This document shows, piece by piece, positions 46,077 through 57,024 of a stretch of DNA of 64,000 nt. Position 1 is the first letter of the stretch, and each line of letters opens with the position of its first letter. The translations under genes and the position numbers were made by a program. The DNA comes from a virus: positions 5,747 to 69,746 of IMG/VR virus record IMGVR_UViG_3300044644_002048, one strand, 5' to 3'. A model generated the notes under the pieces. It ran no database searches, was not told the origin of the DNA, and was given only the letters and a program-made list of their open reading frames with translations.

Positions 46077-46646
46077 CTAAAACTTGATGCGAATTTTTAC
46101 AAAACCTAGTTCATCTTGTTTAGAAATTGTTTTGCCATACTTTATCGGTGTTTTACGCCATGTAATTTTGTCACTTTTGGCGTCGTAATATAGTTTTTGT
46201 CCTACTGGAAGTTGCCAATTCAAAGGGAACTTTCCAGATATTTCTCCCGATTTCATTATACCAATTTTACCACCAATGGCTACGTCAGACAACCTATATG
46301 ATTGATAAATATTCATATCCATGGTCACCATATTATAAATACTAACGCCTATTGGTAATCCTTCTGGTTTTTTTGTAACTAGCATTTGATTTGTTGGATG
46401 CTGAAACAAAAGATCGCCAATTTTTATTTCTTCTTGAGCGAAGTATGATATATCAACACCCATTATGTCTGAGCAACCACAAGCTAATTTAACATCATAA
46501 GCTTCAGACTCAACTATTCTGGCTAGTTTTGATCTATACTCTGATATTTTCTGGCCAAGAATTCTTACTCGTTCGTCTTTATGATTCTTGCAGAACTTAT
46601 CTATTTCAGGAATCCCGAATTTCTGTGTCTTCATATATGTGCCCAT
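46077..46646 (-). CDS. Hypothetical protein; C-terminus resembles capsid cement/decoration proteins
   Basis: PIGV...VAIGGKIGIMKSG...VGQKLY...GKTISKQDELGFVKIRI. Confidence 0.5.
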   Translation of the reverse strand: MGTYMKTQKFGIPEIDKFCKNHKDERVRILGQKISEYRSKLARIVESEAYDVKLACGCSDIMGVDISYFAQEEIKIGDLLFQHPTNQMLVTKKPEGLPIGVSIYNMVTMDMNIYQSYRLSDVAIGGKIGIMKSGEISGKFPLNWQLPVGQKLYYDAKSDKITWRKTPIKYGKTISKQDELGFVKIRIKF

Positions 46647-47028
46647 CTATTTTCAGATGCGTAGTATTATTAGTTAAGCTTTTGTATTCATATAAAAAAG
46701 TATCATCATCAAGATACCAACATAATCTATCTTCATTCCATGAAACTTCCCATCTACCCCAATCATCTTCACTTTCGAAGTATAATAGAATATCGCCTTC
46801 AAAGATTTCGACACCTTCCGAATCGAAGATTCCAGTACTTTGTTGGATAACTATATCATCTTCATTAAGAGATATCCAGCCCCTTTTATCTCTGTCATAG
46901 ACAGCAACATCTACGCCCCACTTACTATCAGTATAATCTTTGAGATTAAAAATAGGGTCTTCCTCGTCCCACGGATCTAGGAATCTCTTCTCAATCTTGT
47001 GCCAAACTCGAAAGTGAAATTTCCTCAA
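46606..47028 (-). CDS. YopX-family protein
   Basis: FRVWHK, QQSTGIFDSEGVEIFEGDIL, GHIYE. Confidence 0.85.
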   Translation of the reverse strand: MRKFHFRVWHKIEKRFLDPWDEEDPIFNLKDYTDSKWGVDVAVYDRDKRGWISLNEDDIVIQQSTGIFDSEGVEIFEGDILLYFESEDDWGRWEVSWNEDRLCWYLDDDTFLYEYKSLTNNTTHLKIDGHIYEDTEIRDS

Positions 47029-47052
47029 AGTATATCATCCTCTCTGGCCATC

Positions 47053-48009
47053 TTAGATGGCCACATCTCGCCACACGTCCACGAAGGGGCACTCATCAAA
47101 GCTTAAATGCTTAGGATAAGATCTGGCTGCGTTAAAGAACCGACTAAATAGGAGTCCGTAGGGTAAGGGATCGATTAGTGTGATACCAGTAAGGTAAGAT
47201 ACTAAACAGCCCGAAGCCGACCCTCTTCCTGCCCCGACCAATACACCTTTTTGTCTAGCTTCGTTGCAGAAGTCCTGAACAATAAGAAAATAACCAGCCA
47301 AATTATTTAGCTCAATTACCTTCATCTCTTTGTTGAGTCGATCCCTATATCTAGGGATCTCGTCAACCGGGATCATTTTACTAAAGCCAATTTCAACAAG
47401 GTCTCGTAGTAATTCAATCTCAGGCTTGTCTCCAGCGAAACCGGGCAGCTTAGGACTCGTAAAAAAGGAATAGGGCTCTATAAGACCAAGGAATTCAGAC
47501 ATTCTCGGGGCGACTATTTCAGACGGAAACTCATAGCCCTTAGTATTTTCTACTAATTTGGTTATGGTTGTCTTGTTTGCCATAGCCCTAAGAATTCTGT
47601 ATGATTCTTCATCAGACACATCAATATATCTGCAATCTCTAAGACCTAAATCAGTCTCAGAGAAGCGAATTTTGAACTTTTCTTCATCGGAAACGAAGAT
47701 AAGGTTTTCTGACTGGAATACAGAAGGCTCAATCGGCATAGAATGGGCGATGTTGTTAACTAAACTAATTAACTCATACCATCCAGTTAGATTTCTAGCG
47801 AAGACTTTGTACTGTAAGTCACAACCAATTATGGGAATAATCCCATGATTTTGGCAACATTCCACGAAATCTACTGCTGCTGATAGTGTACCGAAATCAC
47901 ATAGGCCGACATGAGTATGTCCAAGTTTTTTTGCAGCCAACACCAAATCTATTGGCTTATTAAAAGCTTGTAGTACTGAATAATGAGTACGATTAAGTAA
48001 TTGGGCCAT
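47053..48009 (-). CDS. dnaE: DNA polymerase III alpha, N-terminal part (PHP to start of palm)
   Basis: RTHYSVL, GLCDFG, PIIGC, ARNLTGWYEL, YFLIVQDF, GAGRGSASGCLVSYLTGIT, LLFSRFFN. Confidence 0.92.
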   Translation of the reverse strand: MAQLLNRTHYSVLQAFNKPIDLVLAAKKLGHTHVGLCDFGTLSAAVDFVECCQNHGIIPIIGCDLQYKVFARNLTGWYELISLVNNIAHSMPIEPSVFQSENLIFVSDEEKFKIRFSETDLGLRDCRYIDVSDEESYRILRAMANKTTITKLVENTKGYEFPSEIVAPRMSEFLGLIEPYSFFTSPKLPGFAGDKPEIELLRDLVEIGFSKMIPVDEIPRYRDRLNKEMKVIELNNLAGYFLIVQDFCNEARQKGVLVGAGRGSASGCLVSYLTGITLIDPLPYGLLFSRFFNAARSYPKHLSFDECPFVDVWRDVAI

Positions 48010-48131
48010 TTTATTTCCTTGATGTTGGTACAACCGTAGTTATAAGACCTACGAATAGAAAAAATCCCCAACCACCTTTGTCTTGTGAAGCCAAATAAGC
48101 TGCTGATACTATTGACGTGATTGATACGAGA

Positions 48132-49605: not shown

Positions 49606-50109
49606 TCAAAATTTCTCCCTAGTGTCTTCGACACTCGATAAAGTAGAAATATGATTTAATTGGTCGATCCTTATAGACCTACAATCTTCTTTCACTTCAA
49701 AAGACCCATCCATATCTCCCTTCTTTTGGGCGATTCCGTCAGACAAAAGTCTTTCTTTCGTTATATACCCCAAAAGCCAGCACTTCTTCTTAGTGAGATC
49801 TACCCTAGCGAATACGTATTGATCTGTATCGTTGCCAAGCTGGTATTCCATTACAGAGCATAGATAATTCCCCTTTGGTTTTGACGAGGCTGATTTGGTC
49901 TTTACATCCACCCTCTTTTCTTTTATGAGGATATCATGATCATAATTATCAACTATAATCCCGCCAGTATATTTAGCGGTTATAATTTCCCCTATGAAAC
50001 CTACAACATTTCCTTTACCATAGAGTCTTGACGATGACAATATGCCCATCAATTCACTACGTCTCTCAGCTTCGATGATATCATCATCATATATGTCAAA
50101 CTCTATCAT
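49606..50109 (-). CDS. Putative PD-(D/E)XK nuclease-fold protein
   Basis: GFIGE, YDHD, VDVKTK, YVFARV, WLLG. Confidence 0.6.
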   Translation of the reverse strand: MIEFDIYDDDIIEAERRSELMGILSSSRLYGKGNVVGFIGEIITAKYTGGIIVDNYDHDILIKEKRVDVKTKSASSKPKGNYLCSVMEYQLGNDTDQYVFARVDLTKKKCWLLGYITKERLLSDGIAQKKGDMDGSFEVKEDCRSIRIDQLNHISTLSSVEDTREKF

Positions 50110-50281
50110 TTTTTACTCCGTTGTAGGATCTCAGAAATCTGTTCGAGTTCTAGGGAACTTAAACCTTTTCTGTATTCATGATCAGAAACAAGCTGGGAAA
50201 ATTTACCTTCCTTAGTAATCTGCCCAACTATTTTGTTTTGTGTATCCACCACTAAAGTTTTCGTTTTATCTAAATAGAACA

Positions 50282-50623
50282 TTATTCCTCCACTATTTTT
50301 AATTCCCCAACAAAATTTGATACAACCTGATATGCACTACATCTCAACTTTTGACAACTACAATCAGTTGGTATAGATACCACATCAGCCGGATGAATCT
50401 TGCATATCATTATGTGATGATGTGATTTAACATATTCTAGGGTTCCCACATGGAATCCACTACCACAACCGTTATTCCTATTATCGTCAACCTTATTTCT
50501 TGGCATATGATTATGGTCGCCAATGTTATTTCTATATGAACGACTATGAGCATCAACGAAATCCCCATTTTTTAGGGGTCTTCCAAGAGCATCTAACTTG
50601 TCTGGCCCAGATCTGTTAATATG
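50282..50623 (-). pseudogene. C-terminal remnant of an rIIB-like gene
   Basis: FVDAHSRSYRNNIG..MPRNKVDDNRNNGCGSGFHVG..PADVVSIP..KLRC..YQVV; frame closed upstream by TAG; N-terminal part absent. Confidence 0.65.
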
Positions 50624-53650: not shown

Positions 53651-54459
53651 TAGTCAACACCTTCTTCAGAATAAGACTGTAACGACGTATTTTCCAGAGC
53701 GAAATACCAACCCTTTAGGTTTAGGGAAACGTGTTGAGGATGACTGACGGATGGTGTTCTAAACACAGGAATGGGATTCCCACCATTTATATTAAGCGTG
53801 TCCTCAACTAGATAAGCTCGACTAAAACTTACCTTGTGTGGATTTGATGTAATTTTATCATTTCTACCTCTAAGAATGTAGCAACTATCGCTAATTTTTT
53901 CTTTGATGTAGTCTTTTGGATCATCTGTTTTAACGAAAAACCATTCGCCCTGACGATGAAAGTCCATATCTCTAATATATTCTGGAATAAGACACTCATA
54001 CGCATGTTCTATAGAATAAACAGTTTCTGGTAATAAAACTCCAAAATACTGATCATCATCTATTCCTAGTAAAATAGACTTACTTCCATAACCGAACAGA
54101 ACAGATGCTGGTTTATGCCAGTAATCTTTTGCTATTTTTGTAAATCCAAATCCCGGAGAGGTTTTAGAATGTGTTCTAATATCTGTGCTACTATCTCTCA
54201 GATGTAGATGAATCATAGAATCTAGATATTTTGTGTAATTATAATTAGGCTCTGAAGATCCTGACATGAATCTAGACAGGCATCTAAAAGAGATAGTTAT
54301 TGCATCGTCATCATCTGCGTATGTGTTTGCGTCCTGATCACCATTAAGAAATAATTTGTCATCAATAAAAGTAGCAGATGGTACTTTATGATTTCTCCTA
54401 TAGAAACAACCGTGTCTTTCTCGGCATGATCTCAAAAAACTAAAGGTATCGTAGTTCAT
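53650..54459 (-). CDS. Hypothetical protein
   Basis: AYECLIP, RQGEWFF, H...HPQH, terminal GVD. Confidence 0.7.
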   Translation of the reverse strand: MNYDTFSFLRSCRERHGCFYRRNHKVPSATFIDDKLFLNGDQDANTYADDDDAITISFRCLSRFMSGSSEPNYNYTKYLDSMIHLHLRDSSTDIRTHSKTSPGFGFTKIAKDYWHKPASVLFGYGSKSILLGIDDDQYFGVLLPETVYSIEHAYECLIPEYIRDMDFHRQGEWFFVKTDDPKDYIKEKISDSCYILRGRNDKITSNPHKVSFSRAYLVEDTLNINGGNPIPVFRTPSVSHPQHVSLNLKGWYFALENTSLQSYSEEGVD

Positions 54460-54508
54460 GTTAATTCTTTCTATGAAAAGTGATTATTAAATTCCTATGT
54501 AGGAATTA

Positions 54509-54578
54509 AGGGAAGTTTGGGAGTTGAACCCAACACTCGGGATTGAAGGCCCGATACTACACCTCGTAGTTACCTCCC
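54509..54578 (-). tRNA. Atypical tRNA with 8-nt anticodon loop CCUUCAAU (UUCA four-base or UCA opal anticodon)
   Basis: GGGAGGT-A-ACTAC/GAGGT/GTAGT-A-TCGGG/CCTTCAAT/CCCGA-GTG-TTGGG/TTCAACT/CCCAA-ACTTCCC-T. Confidence 0.8.
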
Positions 54579-54584
54579 GGCAGA

Positions 54585-54902
54585 CTATGTCTGCAACCAG
54601 TCCAACACTTCCTGCTGAGTTATTGACCTAGACCAACCACAGAACTTACATAGTTTACCACATAATTTCTTGATGTCAATAGGTTTTTTGGAAGTTTCCA
54701 CCCTTGATCTTGGCATTCCCTTTAGGAAGCCGAGGGCTAAATGGGCCAACCTCGCTTCTGGCTTAACGATCAAGGTTTTATGATTCCATAGCCTTGATTT
54801 TACCAGTGGATCTTTTGTTTTGGCCATCTCTTGGCGAATTATGGCAGCTTCTGCGGCCAAGCTTTTGATATTAATTCTTGCGACATGAATTTCAGTTTTC
54901 AT
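54585..54902 (-). CDS. Basic 105-aa protein apparently under leader-peptide control
   Basis: GAGGT SD; IKSLAAEAAIIR...EARLAHLALGFLKG. Confidence 0.75.
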   Translation of the reverse strand: MKTEIHVARINIKSLAAEAAIIRQEMAKTKDPLVKSRLWNHKTLIVKPEARLAHLALGFLKGMPRSRVETSKKPIDIKKLCGKLCKFCGWSRSITQQEVLDWLQT

Positions 54903-54906
54903 AATT

Positions 54907-54993
54907 ACCTCATAAAAGAAAAAGTATACATGGATGAACATAGTACTACTTTCTCTTTATGGTGGTCTGCATTCAGAACATGGCTCTGCTCCT
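54907..54993 (-). promoter_or_regulatory. Leader ORF and SD-sequestering hairpin (putative translational attenuator)
   Basis: AGGAG-7nt-ATG TTC TGAA TGC AGA CCA CCA TAA; ACCACCATAAAGAGAAAGTA pairs with TACTTTTTCTTTTATGAGGT. Confidence 0.7.
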
Positions 54994-55039
54994 AATCAAA
55001 TAGTTTTTAATAATACATACGCAATCTCGCGATTGCGAG

Positions 55040-55293
55040 TGGAACTTTCCGGGATCGAACCGGAGTCTTAACAACATCAATAATAGAGATGTACATGCTT
55101 CTCGGCTATGCCGAGGGTTTTAGCTTATATTACAGAACGTTCTGGATTTTGTTAATAAGGCATCCAGAGACCCCATCAGCTACGCTGCAACAGCAAAAGA
55201 TTTTGCGTTTATTTTTTTTAGCCATTATTTTGGAGTTGGCTAACTCCGCATGTATCTATTACATCAAATTATTAATCAAGTCCATTAAGTCCC
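55040..55293 (-). ncRNA. ssrA: tmRNA (compact, 254 nt); tag (A)AKSFAVAA
   Basis: Acceptor GGGACTT/AAGTTCC-A with G3-U70; T arm CCGG-TTCGATC-CCGG; PK1 GGAG/CTCC with TTAGCC/GGCTAA; tag ORF at 55206-55180. Confidence 0.9.
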
Positions 55294-57024
55294 AAAAAGG
55301 TTTATGAAAGTACTTTTATCAATCTTATTAACCGAAAGATCTAGTCCCCTATCTGGACTATCTACAATATTTGCACCAAGATGCTTAACTAAAGTCTTGA
55401 AATTTAATGGTGTTTCATACTGTTCGTACAGTGCCTGTAGACCATTAGAATTTCTTGATACTTTAGCCTGTCCACTGCCACAATTAATTAGGACAAATGA
55501 CTGTCCTTTTTCTTCTGGTAGAACAATACCAAAAATCATCTGATTTTGTACAGAGCAGGTTTTGATTTCAGCCATAACCTTATTAGGGTCCATCATATAA
55601 GGCTTAGAGATTTCATCACCAGATCCAACAACAATCTTATATCCAGTAGTGTCAGAGCCACGGAAGATATTAATATTGACTATTTTTGGACCGAATACAT
55701 TCTGGAAATGCAGATATTCAACAGCCCCATTCGGTGCATATGTTATATCTCCACTATAGATTACATCTTTTGTAGAGTATCTAGAGTTCCATCCAATCTT
55801 ATGGTTATTGATATCAGTACATGACAAGTCAATATCACGAGCACCCCAACTATTTTCCCAATATACTCCAATAGCTAATTTTTCACCATGGAATTTTGTT
55901 CCGGCAGGAATATTGCCGACAAACATCTTTTCAGACGTAGGTACAGCATATTCAACGCCTTCTGGAATGAAAATGTTCACACCAGACATATCCCATCGTT
56001 TTTTAGCATAATCCATGAGCATACTAAAATTCGAAGCAAGTAAATCAAGATTTGCAGAAGTATTTTCACCAACCCATGATTTTCCATTACGAATTCTATA
56101 ACAGAAAGAGGTCTGACCCTGCATTCTACTATGGATAGCTGCCAATGCCTTAAAGAAGGCAAATGGTGTAGCATTATCTAACCAGTGCAAATCCTTTTCG
56201 GACAGTCTTTTGTTAGTAACCTGATTCAGTGGATTAGATACTAAAGGCTTATGATTCACCTTAGAATATCTAGCAATGACATTAATAGTATGCGGACACT
56301 TTTTCTTGAATGCTAAAAATAGTGGCTTAAATCTATTGAAGATTTTGCCTAAGTTATCCACTCCATGCTTCTGGAATATAGAAGATGGGTCAAATTCACT
56401 AGACTTAATAGCCTGAATAGATGCCGCATTCTTAATAAGAAGAGATTTGCCCGTAGCCTTGTAGATACAATACCGGAATAGTTCGGTTGTATCGGCTGGC
56501 ATTATCCCGTGCAGATCGGCAATCTTAATTATTGCTTCTCTGTTCTTAATGTTTTCTTTACCAGTGAACTTATATCCGACTTCATCCAGTACGGATAGAA
56601 TGTCATCTATAGTTTCTTCTTTAAGGGCTACGCCACCAAGCATCGTCAGACACTTAGAGATGATTTCTTCTTTTGTCAATCCCCGAACTACTCTGAATGA
56701 GAGCTTTGCTTCAGGAATTTCCAAAATTTCGTCTGGAATATAGATTTCGCCTTCAAAATTTGTCCCGTATGTGGAACAGTAATGGCGAATCTGATCGGCA
56801 AGAAGTTCTGCCCGAGAAGAAGACTGAACTTTCTGAAAGCTCTTGTGGAAAGATTTGTTTAGATCATTACCACTTAACTTTTGGTCTCTATAGTATTTTA
56901 CTATGTGACTGTGTGCCCAGTCTGCTGAACTATCTATTACGAGACCAAATTCAAGGTCAACCGTATTAGATTTTGATTTTGGTGCTTTTGCGACAACAGC
57001 ATTGAACAAAGAAAGAGTCTTCAT
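55285..57024 (-). CDS. 579-aa protein: large helical N-terminal region and C-terminal TerD-like domain
   Basis: QIRHYCSTYG, IFNRFKPLFLAFK, RIRNGK, SEKMFVGNIP, GVYWEN..DIDLS..GWN..YSGDITYAPNGAVEY. Confidence 0.7.
   Translation of the reverse strand: MKTLSLFNAVVAKAPKSKSNTVDLEFGLVIDSSADWAHSHIVKYYRDQKLSGNDLNKSFHKSFQKVQSSSRAELLADQIRHYCSTYGTNFEGEIYIPDEILEIPEAKLSFRVVRGLTKEEIISKCLTMLGGVALKEETIDDILSVLDEVGYKFTGKENIKNREAIIKIADLHGIMPADTTELFRYCIYKATGKSLLIKNAASIQAIKSSEFDPSSIFQKHGVDNLGKIFNRFKPLFLAFKKKCPHTINVIARYSKVNHKPLVSNPLNQVTNKRLSEKDLHWLDNATPFAFFKALAAIHSRMQGQTSFCYRIRNGKSWVGENTSANLDLLASNFSMLMDYAKKRWDMSGVNIFIPEGVEYAVPTSEKMFVGNIPAGTKFHGEKLAIGVYWENSWGARDIDLSCTDINNHKIGWNSRYSTKDVIYSGDITYAPNGAVEYLHFQNVFGPKIVNINIFRGSDTTGYKIVVGSGDEISKPYMMDPNKVMAEIKTCSVQNQMIFGIVLPEEKGQSFVLINCGSGQAKVSRNSNGLQALYEQYETPLNFKTLVKHLGANIVDSPDRGLDLSVNKIDKSTFINLFGT

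Follow-up and report, generated by a model that had tools for sequence, protein, structure and literature searches.

A phage cassette consistent with a translational switch gated by its own UGAA-reading tRNA

Transfer RNAs that suppress +1 frameshifts, such as sufD, sufA6/SufB2 and sufJ, and the engineered quadruplet tRNAs are intact molecules with an anticodon loop of 8 nucleotides (nt), the extra base of which permits a four-base advance; they came from mutant hunts or design in the laboratory and serve to rescue mutations or to bring in unnatural amino acids. At prfB, an early UGA decides between termination and continuation in the +1 frame, and output follows termination efficiency. Here we describe a cassette consisting of a short leader open reading frame (ORF) interrupted by UGAA, a gene for a 105-amino-acid (105-aa) protein and a tRNA gene with UUCA in an 8-nt anticodon loop, all on the minus strand of a 64-kb stretch of DNA (the window, i.e., the whole stretch that was analysed) from one 69.7-kb virus record (IMG/VR IMGVR_UViG_3300044644_002048; CheckV completeness about 43%). 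We propose, with a probability of roughly 0.78, that the cassette is a translational switch in which a stop-reading tRNA encoded by the phage itself gates the 105-aa gene. In a broader reading, to which we give slightly better than even odds, phages have evolved a private stop-containing four-base codon that is read only by their own 8-nt-loop tRNA and is used as a genetic lock.

The components of the cassette, taken singly, have described relatives. UAGN and other four-base decoders are functional in E. coli, as reported in the available parts of PMC4764823 and PMC9094753. Unlike the suf and engineered tRNAs, the cassette tRNA is a natural, conserved phage gene with a dedicated site, a stop-containing quadruplet and a proposed regulatory use. 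Naturally enlarged 8-nt loops are also found in organelles, in yeast mitochondrial tRNA-Thr (UAG) and in Vischeria mitochondrial tRNA-X, which has been speculated to suppress a stop inside rps3 (PMC7609411, PMC4824035, both available in part). However, the organellar tRNAs serve ordinary decoding, are read in triplets or have speculative roles, and come with no leader, arrest motif or regulatory hairpin. A "Sup-CTA" tRNA of the Stenotrophomonas phages DLP3 and DLP5 is merely listed, with no link to a leader or a neighbouring gene, in the available part of PMC7326821; in DLP5 it belongs to the same cassette in an amber, in-frame form.

The closest counterparts of the leader are the RAPP/RGPP leaders (ApdA, ApdP, ApcA and upstream ORFs, uORFs, of Streptomyces) and SecM-secA, in which a small upstream ORF ends in R-(A/G/S/D)-P-P, an ending seen in relatives of the window leader, while the window copy itself reads R-P-P-stop. 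Among bacterial arrest motifs, the strongest known are RGPP and RAPP, which resist EF-P, while RSPP and RDPP are partly permissive (PMC12992588, available in part), and the stall is presumed to open a hairpin in which the Shine-Dalgarno (SD) sequence of the next gene is masked (PMC12992588, PMC10951233 and PMC10987492, in the parts available). Known arrest leaders are secretory or membrane proteins of 50-300 aa whose stall is relieved by the export machinery, whereas the cassette leaders span 6-20 codons, have no sensor domain and carry the arrest motif out of frame, where it would be reached via a tRNA-dependent frame change. Within the window leader, Met-Phe-X-Cys-Arg-Pro-Pro, there is no signal or membrane segment through which a stall could be relieved. 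The leader resembles arrest leaders in its presumed working but lies outside the class that monitors Sec/YidC. The literature searched, which left out most subscription journals and the uORF supplements of PMC12992588, covers frameshift suppressors from the laboratory, quadruplet tRNAs made by engineering, 8-nt loops in organellar tRNAs and arrest peptides of the RAPP type, but nowhere this combination, and within that scope neither a natural UGAA-reading tRNA of a phage nor an arrest leader gated by a tRNA is described; the author of an earlier note on this DNA had likewise not recognised the arrangement as a described system.

In the window, the cassette is made up of the following features, given in transcription order:

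54989..54993, minus strand: leader SD sequence AGGAG, read directly, 7 nt before the leader AUG
54973..54981, minus strand: leader frame 0, read directly, AUG UUC UGA, i.e., Met-Phe-stop
54972..54975, minus strand: UGAA, the proposed four-base codon, complementary to the UUCA of the tRNA loop
54957..54971, minus strand: +1 continuation UGC AGA CCA CCA UAA, i.e., Cys-Arg-Pro-Pro-stop, a putative RAPP-like stall or slow Pro-Pro-stop termination
54907..54966, minus strand: hairpin whose 5' arm begins in the Arg/Pro codons and whose 3' arm contains the GAGGU SD (54911-54907) of the 105-aa gene
54585..54902, minus strand: the putatively gated gene, encoding a 105-aa helical-hairpin protein with the motif R-V/I-N-V/I-K-S-L-A-A-E ... 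E-A-R-x-A-H-L-A-L
54509..54578, minus strand: tRNA, a 70-nt cloverleaf with four fully paired stems, 6 nt after the stop codon of the 105-aa gene

The earlier note had described the leader, its SD, the UGAA and the +1 reading, and all of these are found base for base on the minus strand. As that note had also claimed, the +1 frame lacks a start of its own: tracing back to the nearest upstream stop, no ATG, GTG or TTG is met. The tRNA stands where it was said to stand, 6 nt past the gene stop, and its 8-nt anticodon loop, CCUUCAAU (54549-54542), holds UUCA at 54547-54544; with an intact cloverleaf and such a loop it has the anatomy of the frameshift-suppressor and quadruplet tRNAs. The body is compact: 1 nt separates the acceptor stem from the D stem, which has 5 base pairs (bp) and a 5-nt loop, and there is a 3-nt variable loop besides a normal T loop, proportions that we take to resemble those of tRNA-Pyl. 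The discriminator is U, CCA is not encoded, and discriminator bases vary among the relatives of this tRNA. ARAGORN does not call it under default settings and labels it "tRNA-?(tc)" under relaxed ones; Rfam returns tRNA-Sec alone, at 29.4 bits (threshold 47), and the covariance model (CM) R1, whose training set includes the window tRNA, gives 73.2 bits. In an alignment of 22 tRNA sequences, 85.7% of the cells of the cloverleaf are paired, compared with 64% in shuffles and 39-52% in slid controls, and 19 of the 22 cloverleaf pairs show changes on both sides.

The proposed hairpin, about 15 bp plus ACC/GGT and reaching up to the GAGGT SD, was recovered by RNAfold, in whose fold ACC and a further 15 nt (54966-54947) form pairs up to and including the SD of the 105-aa gene. 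Its minimum free energy (MFE) is -25.4 kcal/mol (z -2.5), a value equalled by 2 of 200 shuffles; on a 79-nt cut, z is -3.2. As in leaders of the RAPP type, this SD-hiding hairpin has its 5' arm where a stalled ribosome would lie.

As a plausible coupling mechanism, ribosomes would initiate at the leader AUG and reach UGA at codon 3. When release factor 2 (RF2) wins, the ribosome would leave after Met-Phe, and the hairpin would keep the gene SD paired and the gene off. The 8-nt-loop UUCA tRNA, presumed to be charged, would decode UGA together with the next A and thereby set the ribosome in the +1 frame, either by four-base pairing or by triplet pairing with a +1 step at translocation; the invariant U of the loop fits either four-base pairing or UCA/UGA pairing followed by a +1 step from the enlarged loop. 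A ribosome in the +1 frame would then read Cys-Arg-Pro-Pro and pause on the RAPP-like Pro-Pro-stop, where it would occupy the 5' arm of the hairpin, so that the SD would be freed and the gene translated. The charging, the +1 decoding, the stall and the unmasking are all steps that we infer from the anatomy of the locus and its relatives.

The recurrence of this arrangement was explored in loci collected by alignment-based searches (36 + 28 loci) and by tblastn of GenBank phages (9 records, 4 used). After removal of seven re-fetches (L037-41, L043, L044; loci are numbered with the prefix L) and of apparent duplicates on the compared stretches (L012, L023, L025, L031, L036, L050, L053), the comparison set contains 55 non-redundant loci including the window, with homologs at 31-57% identity in the tblastn matches. 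A locus search in IMG/VR with the single protein gave 0 confirmed loci, whereas the alignment-based searches succeeded; alignment A3 gave 0 confirmed loci in GTDB genome contigs, i.e., no prophage copies were found there. An exact 18-nt pattern of the anticodon arm had 0 matches in IMG/VR, and a nucleotide search with the region gave no match in GenBank phages.

A leader or protein N-terminus with UGAA is present in 45 of the 55 loci and one with UAGA in a single locus (46 quadruplet leaders together); five loci have an in-frame UAG, and the remaining four (L022, L024, L048, L064) have nothing or a wreck. The related leaders are short: an SD, AUG, 1 to about 8 codons and then UGAA or UAGA, with SD-like purine runs before the AUG in most. 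Past the quadruplet, the first +1 codon encodes Cys in 34 of the 46 (TGC 27, TGT 7), the second encodes Arg in 29, where six codons of both families are used (AGA, AGG, CGT, CGA, CGC and CGG), and Pro-Pro occurs in the +1 frame of 39, mostly as C-R-(G/S/A/D)-P-P. The resulting peptides, CRGPP, CRSPP, CRAPP and CRDPP, match the arrest motifs RGPP, RSPP, RAPP and RDPP published in PMC12992588 (available in part), while CRPP-stop is read in the window and in L007 and L008, the loci closest to it. The +1 frame is conserved as a peptide, with synonymous changes, and is taken to be the coding frame.

A strict form of the motif (a start within 12 codons, TGAA or TAGA, and, in the +1 register after it, R-x-P-P or C/Y-x(1-3)-P-P) lies upstream of the gene in 33 of the 55 loci and occurs once in the remaining 479 kb on both strands, a 600-fold enrichment upstream of the gene. 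In seven of the 46 quadruplet leaders (L013, L014, L033, L045, L056, L057, L058), the +1 frame is continuous into the protein gene, so the protein there could presumably not be made without the four-base step; in L014 there is no alternative in-frame start for it. In four others, the +1 frame ends on the start codon of the gene (L004, L016, L021 and L035; TAATG, ATGA, TGATG).

The codon is tied to the anticodon. A tRNA with UUCA in an 8-nt loop is found in 40 of the 55 loci, and all 40 accompany UGAA leaders; most of these loops read C-U-UUCA-A-U, and C-C-UUCA-A-U is shared by the window, L046, L056 and L058. The loop is C-U-UCUA-A-U in L028, the locus with the UAGA leader. Four loci with an in-frame UAG (L059, L060, L065 and L066) carry CUA tRNAs with a 7-nt loop, and in all four the Pro-Pro motif or the gene follows the UAG in frame 0:

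L059: frame 0 after UAG is fused to the gene
L060: frame 0 after UAG reads ...Ala-Arg-Gly-Pro-Pro
L065 (DLP5): frame 0 after UAG reads Val-Tyr-Lys-Pro-Pro-stop
L066 (DSS3_MAL1): frame 0 after UAG reads Ile-Arg-Pro-Pro-Pro-stop

The anticodon stems of the CUA tRNAs of L065 and L066 pair imperfectly. Codon, anticodon, loop size and reading frame thus change together. The complementarity joins four loop bases to a message quadruplet that requires a +1 step, L061 being the one mismatch. Covariation of leader codon and anticodon was a check set beforehand in the earlier note; it is found across the 55 loci, with the reading frame covarying as well, and homologs of the 105-aa protein are nearly always accompanied by an SD-AUG...stop-A leader and an odd tRNA. 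In L022 (3900-4395), where the protein gene is intact, the leader has no start, its Arg-Ala-Pro-Pro codons have lost the register and part of the anticodon arm is deleted, which looks like joint decay of leader and tRNA. Both elements are absent from L024 and L064. The protein persists without the gate in four loci and is therefore not strictly dependent on it. No ORF family besides that of the protein is common to more than four loci, so the cassette of protein, leader and tRNA is self-contained. Over the whole set, the comparison shows, at the level of sequence, an arrangement far beyond chance.

The masking of the gene SD was compared in the 25 loci in which it was measurable, scoring at least 7 of the 12 nt around the SD as paired and placing the pairing arm relative to the end of the Pro-Pro codons. 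In 16 of the 25, the anti-SD arm lies at -9 to +16 nt from that end, which is where a ribosome paused on the Pro-Pro codons would sit; L030 is borderline and five loci are partial. The anti-SD/SD pair of L013 is a perfect 12 bp. With the covariation and the conserved +1 peptide, this placement lends support to the gating that the earlier note had put forward.

Several rival explanations were weighed against the proposed switch. A programmed frameshift at UGA that needs no tRNA and reports RF2, with the tRNA being an ordinary opal suppressor or unrelated, would follow the logic of prfB autoregulation, in which a UGA recoding site competes with RF2, and termination efficiency would still gate the gene. 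However, prfB uses the slippery CUU-U and an internal SD without a special tRNA, whereas the cassette has a variable preceding codon and a dedicated tRNA that covaries with the site. No fewer than 17 codons precede the quadruplet in the 46 leaders (ACG 10, TTG 5, ACA 5, ACC 5, TTC 4 and others) and none of them re-pairs in the +1 frame; the window has no slippery P-site codon with an internal SD 3 nt upstream, its only SD ending 13 nt before the UGA. Where the codon differs, so does the tRNA (UCUA with UAGA), the loop size of the tRNA follows the frame (7-nt CUA with frame 0), and leader and tRNA decay together in L022, which makes a tRNA-independent frameshift improbable. Codon/anticodon covariation by itself also fits direct RNA-RNA pairing, as in a T-box-like device in which UGAA contacts the anticodon as untranslated RNA and remodels the hairpin. 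This reading is very improbable: the link between loop size and reading frame counts against it because frame matters only to a ribosome, and the +1 frame is conserved as a peptide through synonymous changes. Neither a Stem I specifier loop nor a T-box sequence is present, the leader, at less than 100 nt, being too short for them and having an SD and AUG in register; even at E<=1, Rfam matches neither a T-box nor any other riboswitch in 54300-55400.

The tRNA might also be a plain triplet UGA suppressor serving other phage genes, the gate-like look of the leader being incidental. Its loop can be read as N-N-U33-UCA-A37-N, and natural 8-nt loops can read triplets, as does that of yeast mitochondrial tRNA-Thr (PMC7609411, in the part available). 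Yet in-frame read-through of the UGA yields no conserved product, with frame 0 stopping again within 3 codons in 15 of the 46 quadruplet leaders, and a motif enriched 600-fold in the +1 frame upstream of the gene is no incidental feature. Nor does the contig look like a customer for such a suppressor: it is 91% coding under code 11, TGA ends 40 of its 103 ORFs, and all six TGAA junctions with at least 50 open codons on both sides (versus 12 for TGAT) are ordinary neighbouring or overlapping genes that need no recoding. We therefore regard this as quite improbable. The many genes interrupted by a reassigned stop that mark stop-codon-recoded phages, which use suppressor tRNAs genome-wide, are not seen in this contig, which represents about 43% of the genome. 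No other contig gene needs the tRNA via a TGAA +1 junction, with over half of the genome missing, and no gene of at least 70 aa ends in TGAATG[CT], zero also being roughly the chance expectation. There is, finally, a practically negligible chance that the locus arose in assembly or consists of a pseudo-tRNA in decay next to a fortuitous mini-ORF, as might be thought from a tRNA that escapes both default ARAGORN and the Rfam gathering threshold. The contigs X3 and X4, from runs of two other studies, show 0 differences from the window across tRNA and leader; thus, the extra bases in both are real and not the assembly errors that the earlier note had named as what could undo its proposal. With these identical contigs, four paired stems, the cloverleaf covariation and the same loop in 40 loci, the artefact and pseudo-tRNA reading was rejected.

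Some observations weigh against the proposed tRNA-gated switch itself. The window motif, C-R-P-P-stop, lacks the middle residue, and it is the R-x-P-P spacing that is the tested arrest form; the nascent chain of the leader has just 7 residues, far below the arrest peptides that have been studied. In 3 of the 25 measurable loci, there is no anti-SD pairing near the Pro-Pro codons. No such tRNA was found in the examined DNA of 7 of the 55 loci, and for 8 of the 40 tRNAs the UUCA loop was identified by eye in weak CM matches or MFE folds, L046 scoring just 20.4 bits. L061 combines a UGAA leader with a UUUA-loop tRNA-like gene and a truncated protein, and in OLIVR1 (L068) an 8-nt loop, GCCCUAAC, accompanies UAG-A and a frame 0 that reads KPP-stop. 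In the window loop, C rather than U precedes UUCA, and the invariant U may just as well represent U33 next to an opal anticodon, UCA, a point specifically against true four-base pairing. Finally, TGAA ends 15 of the 40 TGA-ending ORFs among the 103 ORFs of the contig, so general decoding of UGAA would have to be weak or context-dependent.

The 105-aa protein belongs to what appears to be a large, unannotated phage protein family, with a fold confidently modelled as a helical hairpin. A profile search gathered 3113 cluster representatives at E<=0.001 (1582 at E<=1e-10), whose names are just "hypothetical protein" and one stray "chitinase". The AlphaFold2 (AF2) model (pLDDT 96.4) predicts a long helical hairpin and three short helices. 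PHROGs, Pfam and NCBIfam have no family for the protein; a sequence profile gave 0 PDB matches at E<=1, Foldseek of the model against PDB a best E of 0.64, and the ESM Atlas a best score of 0.86, to unnamed clusters. The best VIA-align wide matches, the LidA coiled coil (Z 8.2) and the ferritin-like EncB (Z 7.7), are in the generic range for helical hairpins.

If the switch operates as proposed, it would be, for bacteria and their viruses, the first natural case of regulation by a dedicated tRNA that reads a four-base codon, and a new class of gene control, tRNA gating through a frame change onto an arrest peptide. Under the lock reading, the protein would be made only where the tRNA is expressed, matured, charged and able to beat the release factor, and the cassette could be a commitment or timer circuit or, as the earlier note had suggested, a sentinel for damage that anticodon nucleases of the host do to phage tRNAs. 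We suggest, with low confidence, that the level of the protein is tied to the activity of this tRNA, as feedback or as a timing or commitment device. The cassette would also provide a regulatory context for a large unannotated phage protein family, explain part of the uninterpreted "tRNA-???" and "Sup" calls in phage annotations, and supply synthetic biology with quadruplet tRNA/site pairs refined by evolution, the amber and UAGA variants being further orthogonal pairs.

Variants of the cassette in cultured phages (DLP5, Summit, DSS3_MAL1, OLIVR1-3 and NCTB) make the idea directly testable, with DLP5 as a ready test bed. Stenotrophomonas phage DLP5 (L065; MG189906.1, about 49840-50342) is a cultured temperate phage with the amber form: its leader, AUG-AAG-UAG-GUC-UAC-AAG-CCG-CCC-UAA, is followed by the homolog DLP05_071 and, 7 nt later, by an annotated tRNA-Sup-CTA. 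Agrobacterium phage OLIVR1 (L068; MT234338.1, 40274-40918) encodes the homolog gp84, annotated as "putative structural protein", and its upstream tRNA, with the loop GCCCUAAC, is annotated as tRNA-Val; the OLIVR1 leader, GUG-...-UAG-A, reads Lys-Lys-Pro-Pro-stop in frame 0, and its +1 frame is open into the gene. The window loop, CCUUCAAU, recurs in the tRNA-like genes of L046 (2223-2295), L056 (2327-2395) and L058 (2318-2386), in which the D arm is weak or missing and CM scores are 20-33 bits.

Further features flank the cassette in the window:

55037..55293, minus strand: phage-encoded transfer-messenger RNA (tmRNA) gene, Rfam 73.9 bits, directly upstream of the leader
55037-55020, minus strand: terminator-like hairpin after the tmRNA, with the leader SD 26 nt further on
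54490..54507, minus strand: perfect 8-bp hairpin, AAUUCCUA-CA-UAGGAAUU, read directly, beginning 2 nt after the tRNA

The order tmRNA-leader-gene-tRNA is repeated in the relative L008 (tmRNA at L008 3604-3863). The tmRNA of the window has the tag AKSFAVAA; in both the window and L008, a ribosome-rescue RNA thus adjoins a stall-type leader, which may or may not be coincidence. The 54490-54507 hairpin may be a processing or termination element.

The virus record has 36% G+C and encodes, besides the tmRNA, seven ordinary tRNAs; lake and freshwater metagenomes contain the window stretch, and no RNA runs are among the sequencing runs listed for it. Neither RF-1 (PF00472) nor PTH2 (PF01981) was found in the contig, in a record only about 43% complete. 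A scan for promoters and terminators gave consensus matches only. One of them, a promoter-like site at 54652-54679 on the minus strand (TTGACA, 16 nt, TG-TAAACT; 10 of 12 positions matching), lies inside the 105-aa gene and upstream of the tRNA, and could, as a consensus match only, make transcription of the tRNA independent of the gated mRNA. Farther along the minus strand, the ORF at 46606-48033 resembles the N-terminal part of DNA polymerase III alpha (PHP domain) and is followed by two short overlapping ORFs; judged by eye from the translations, this is possibly a split or interrupted polymerase gene.

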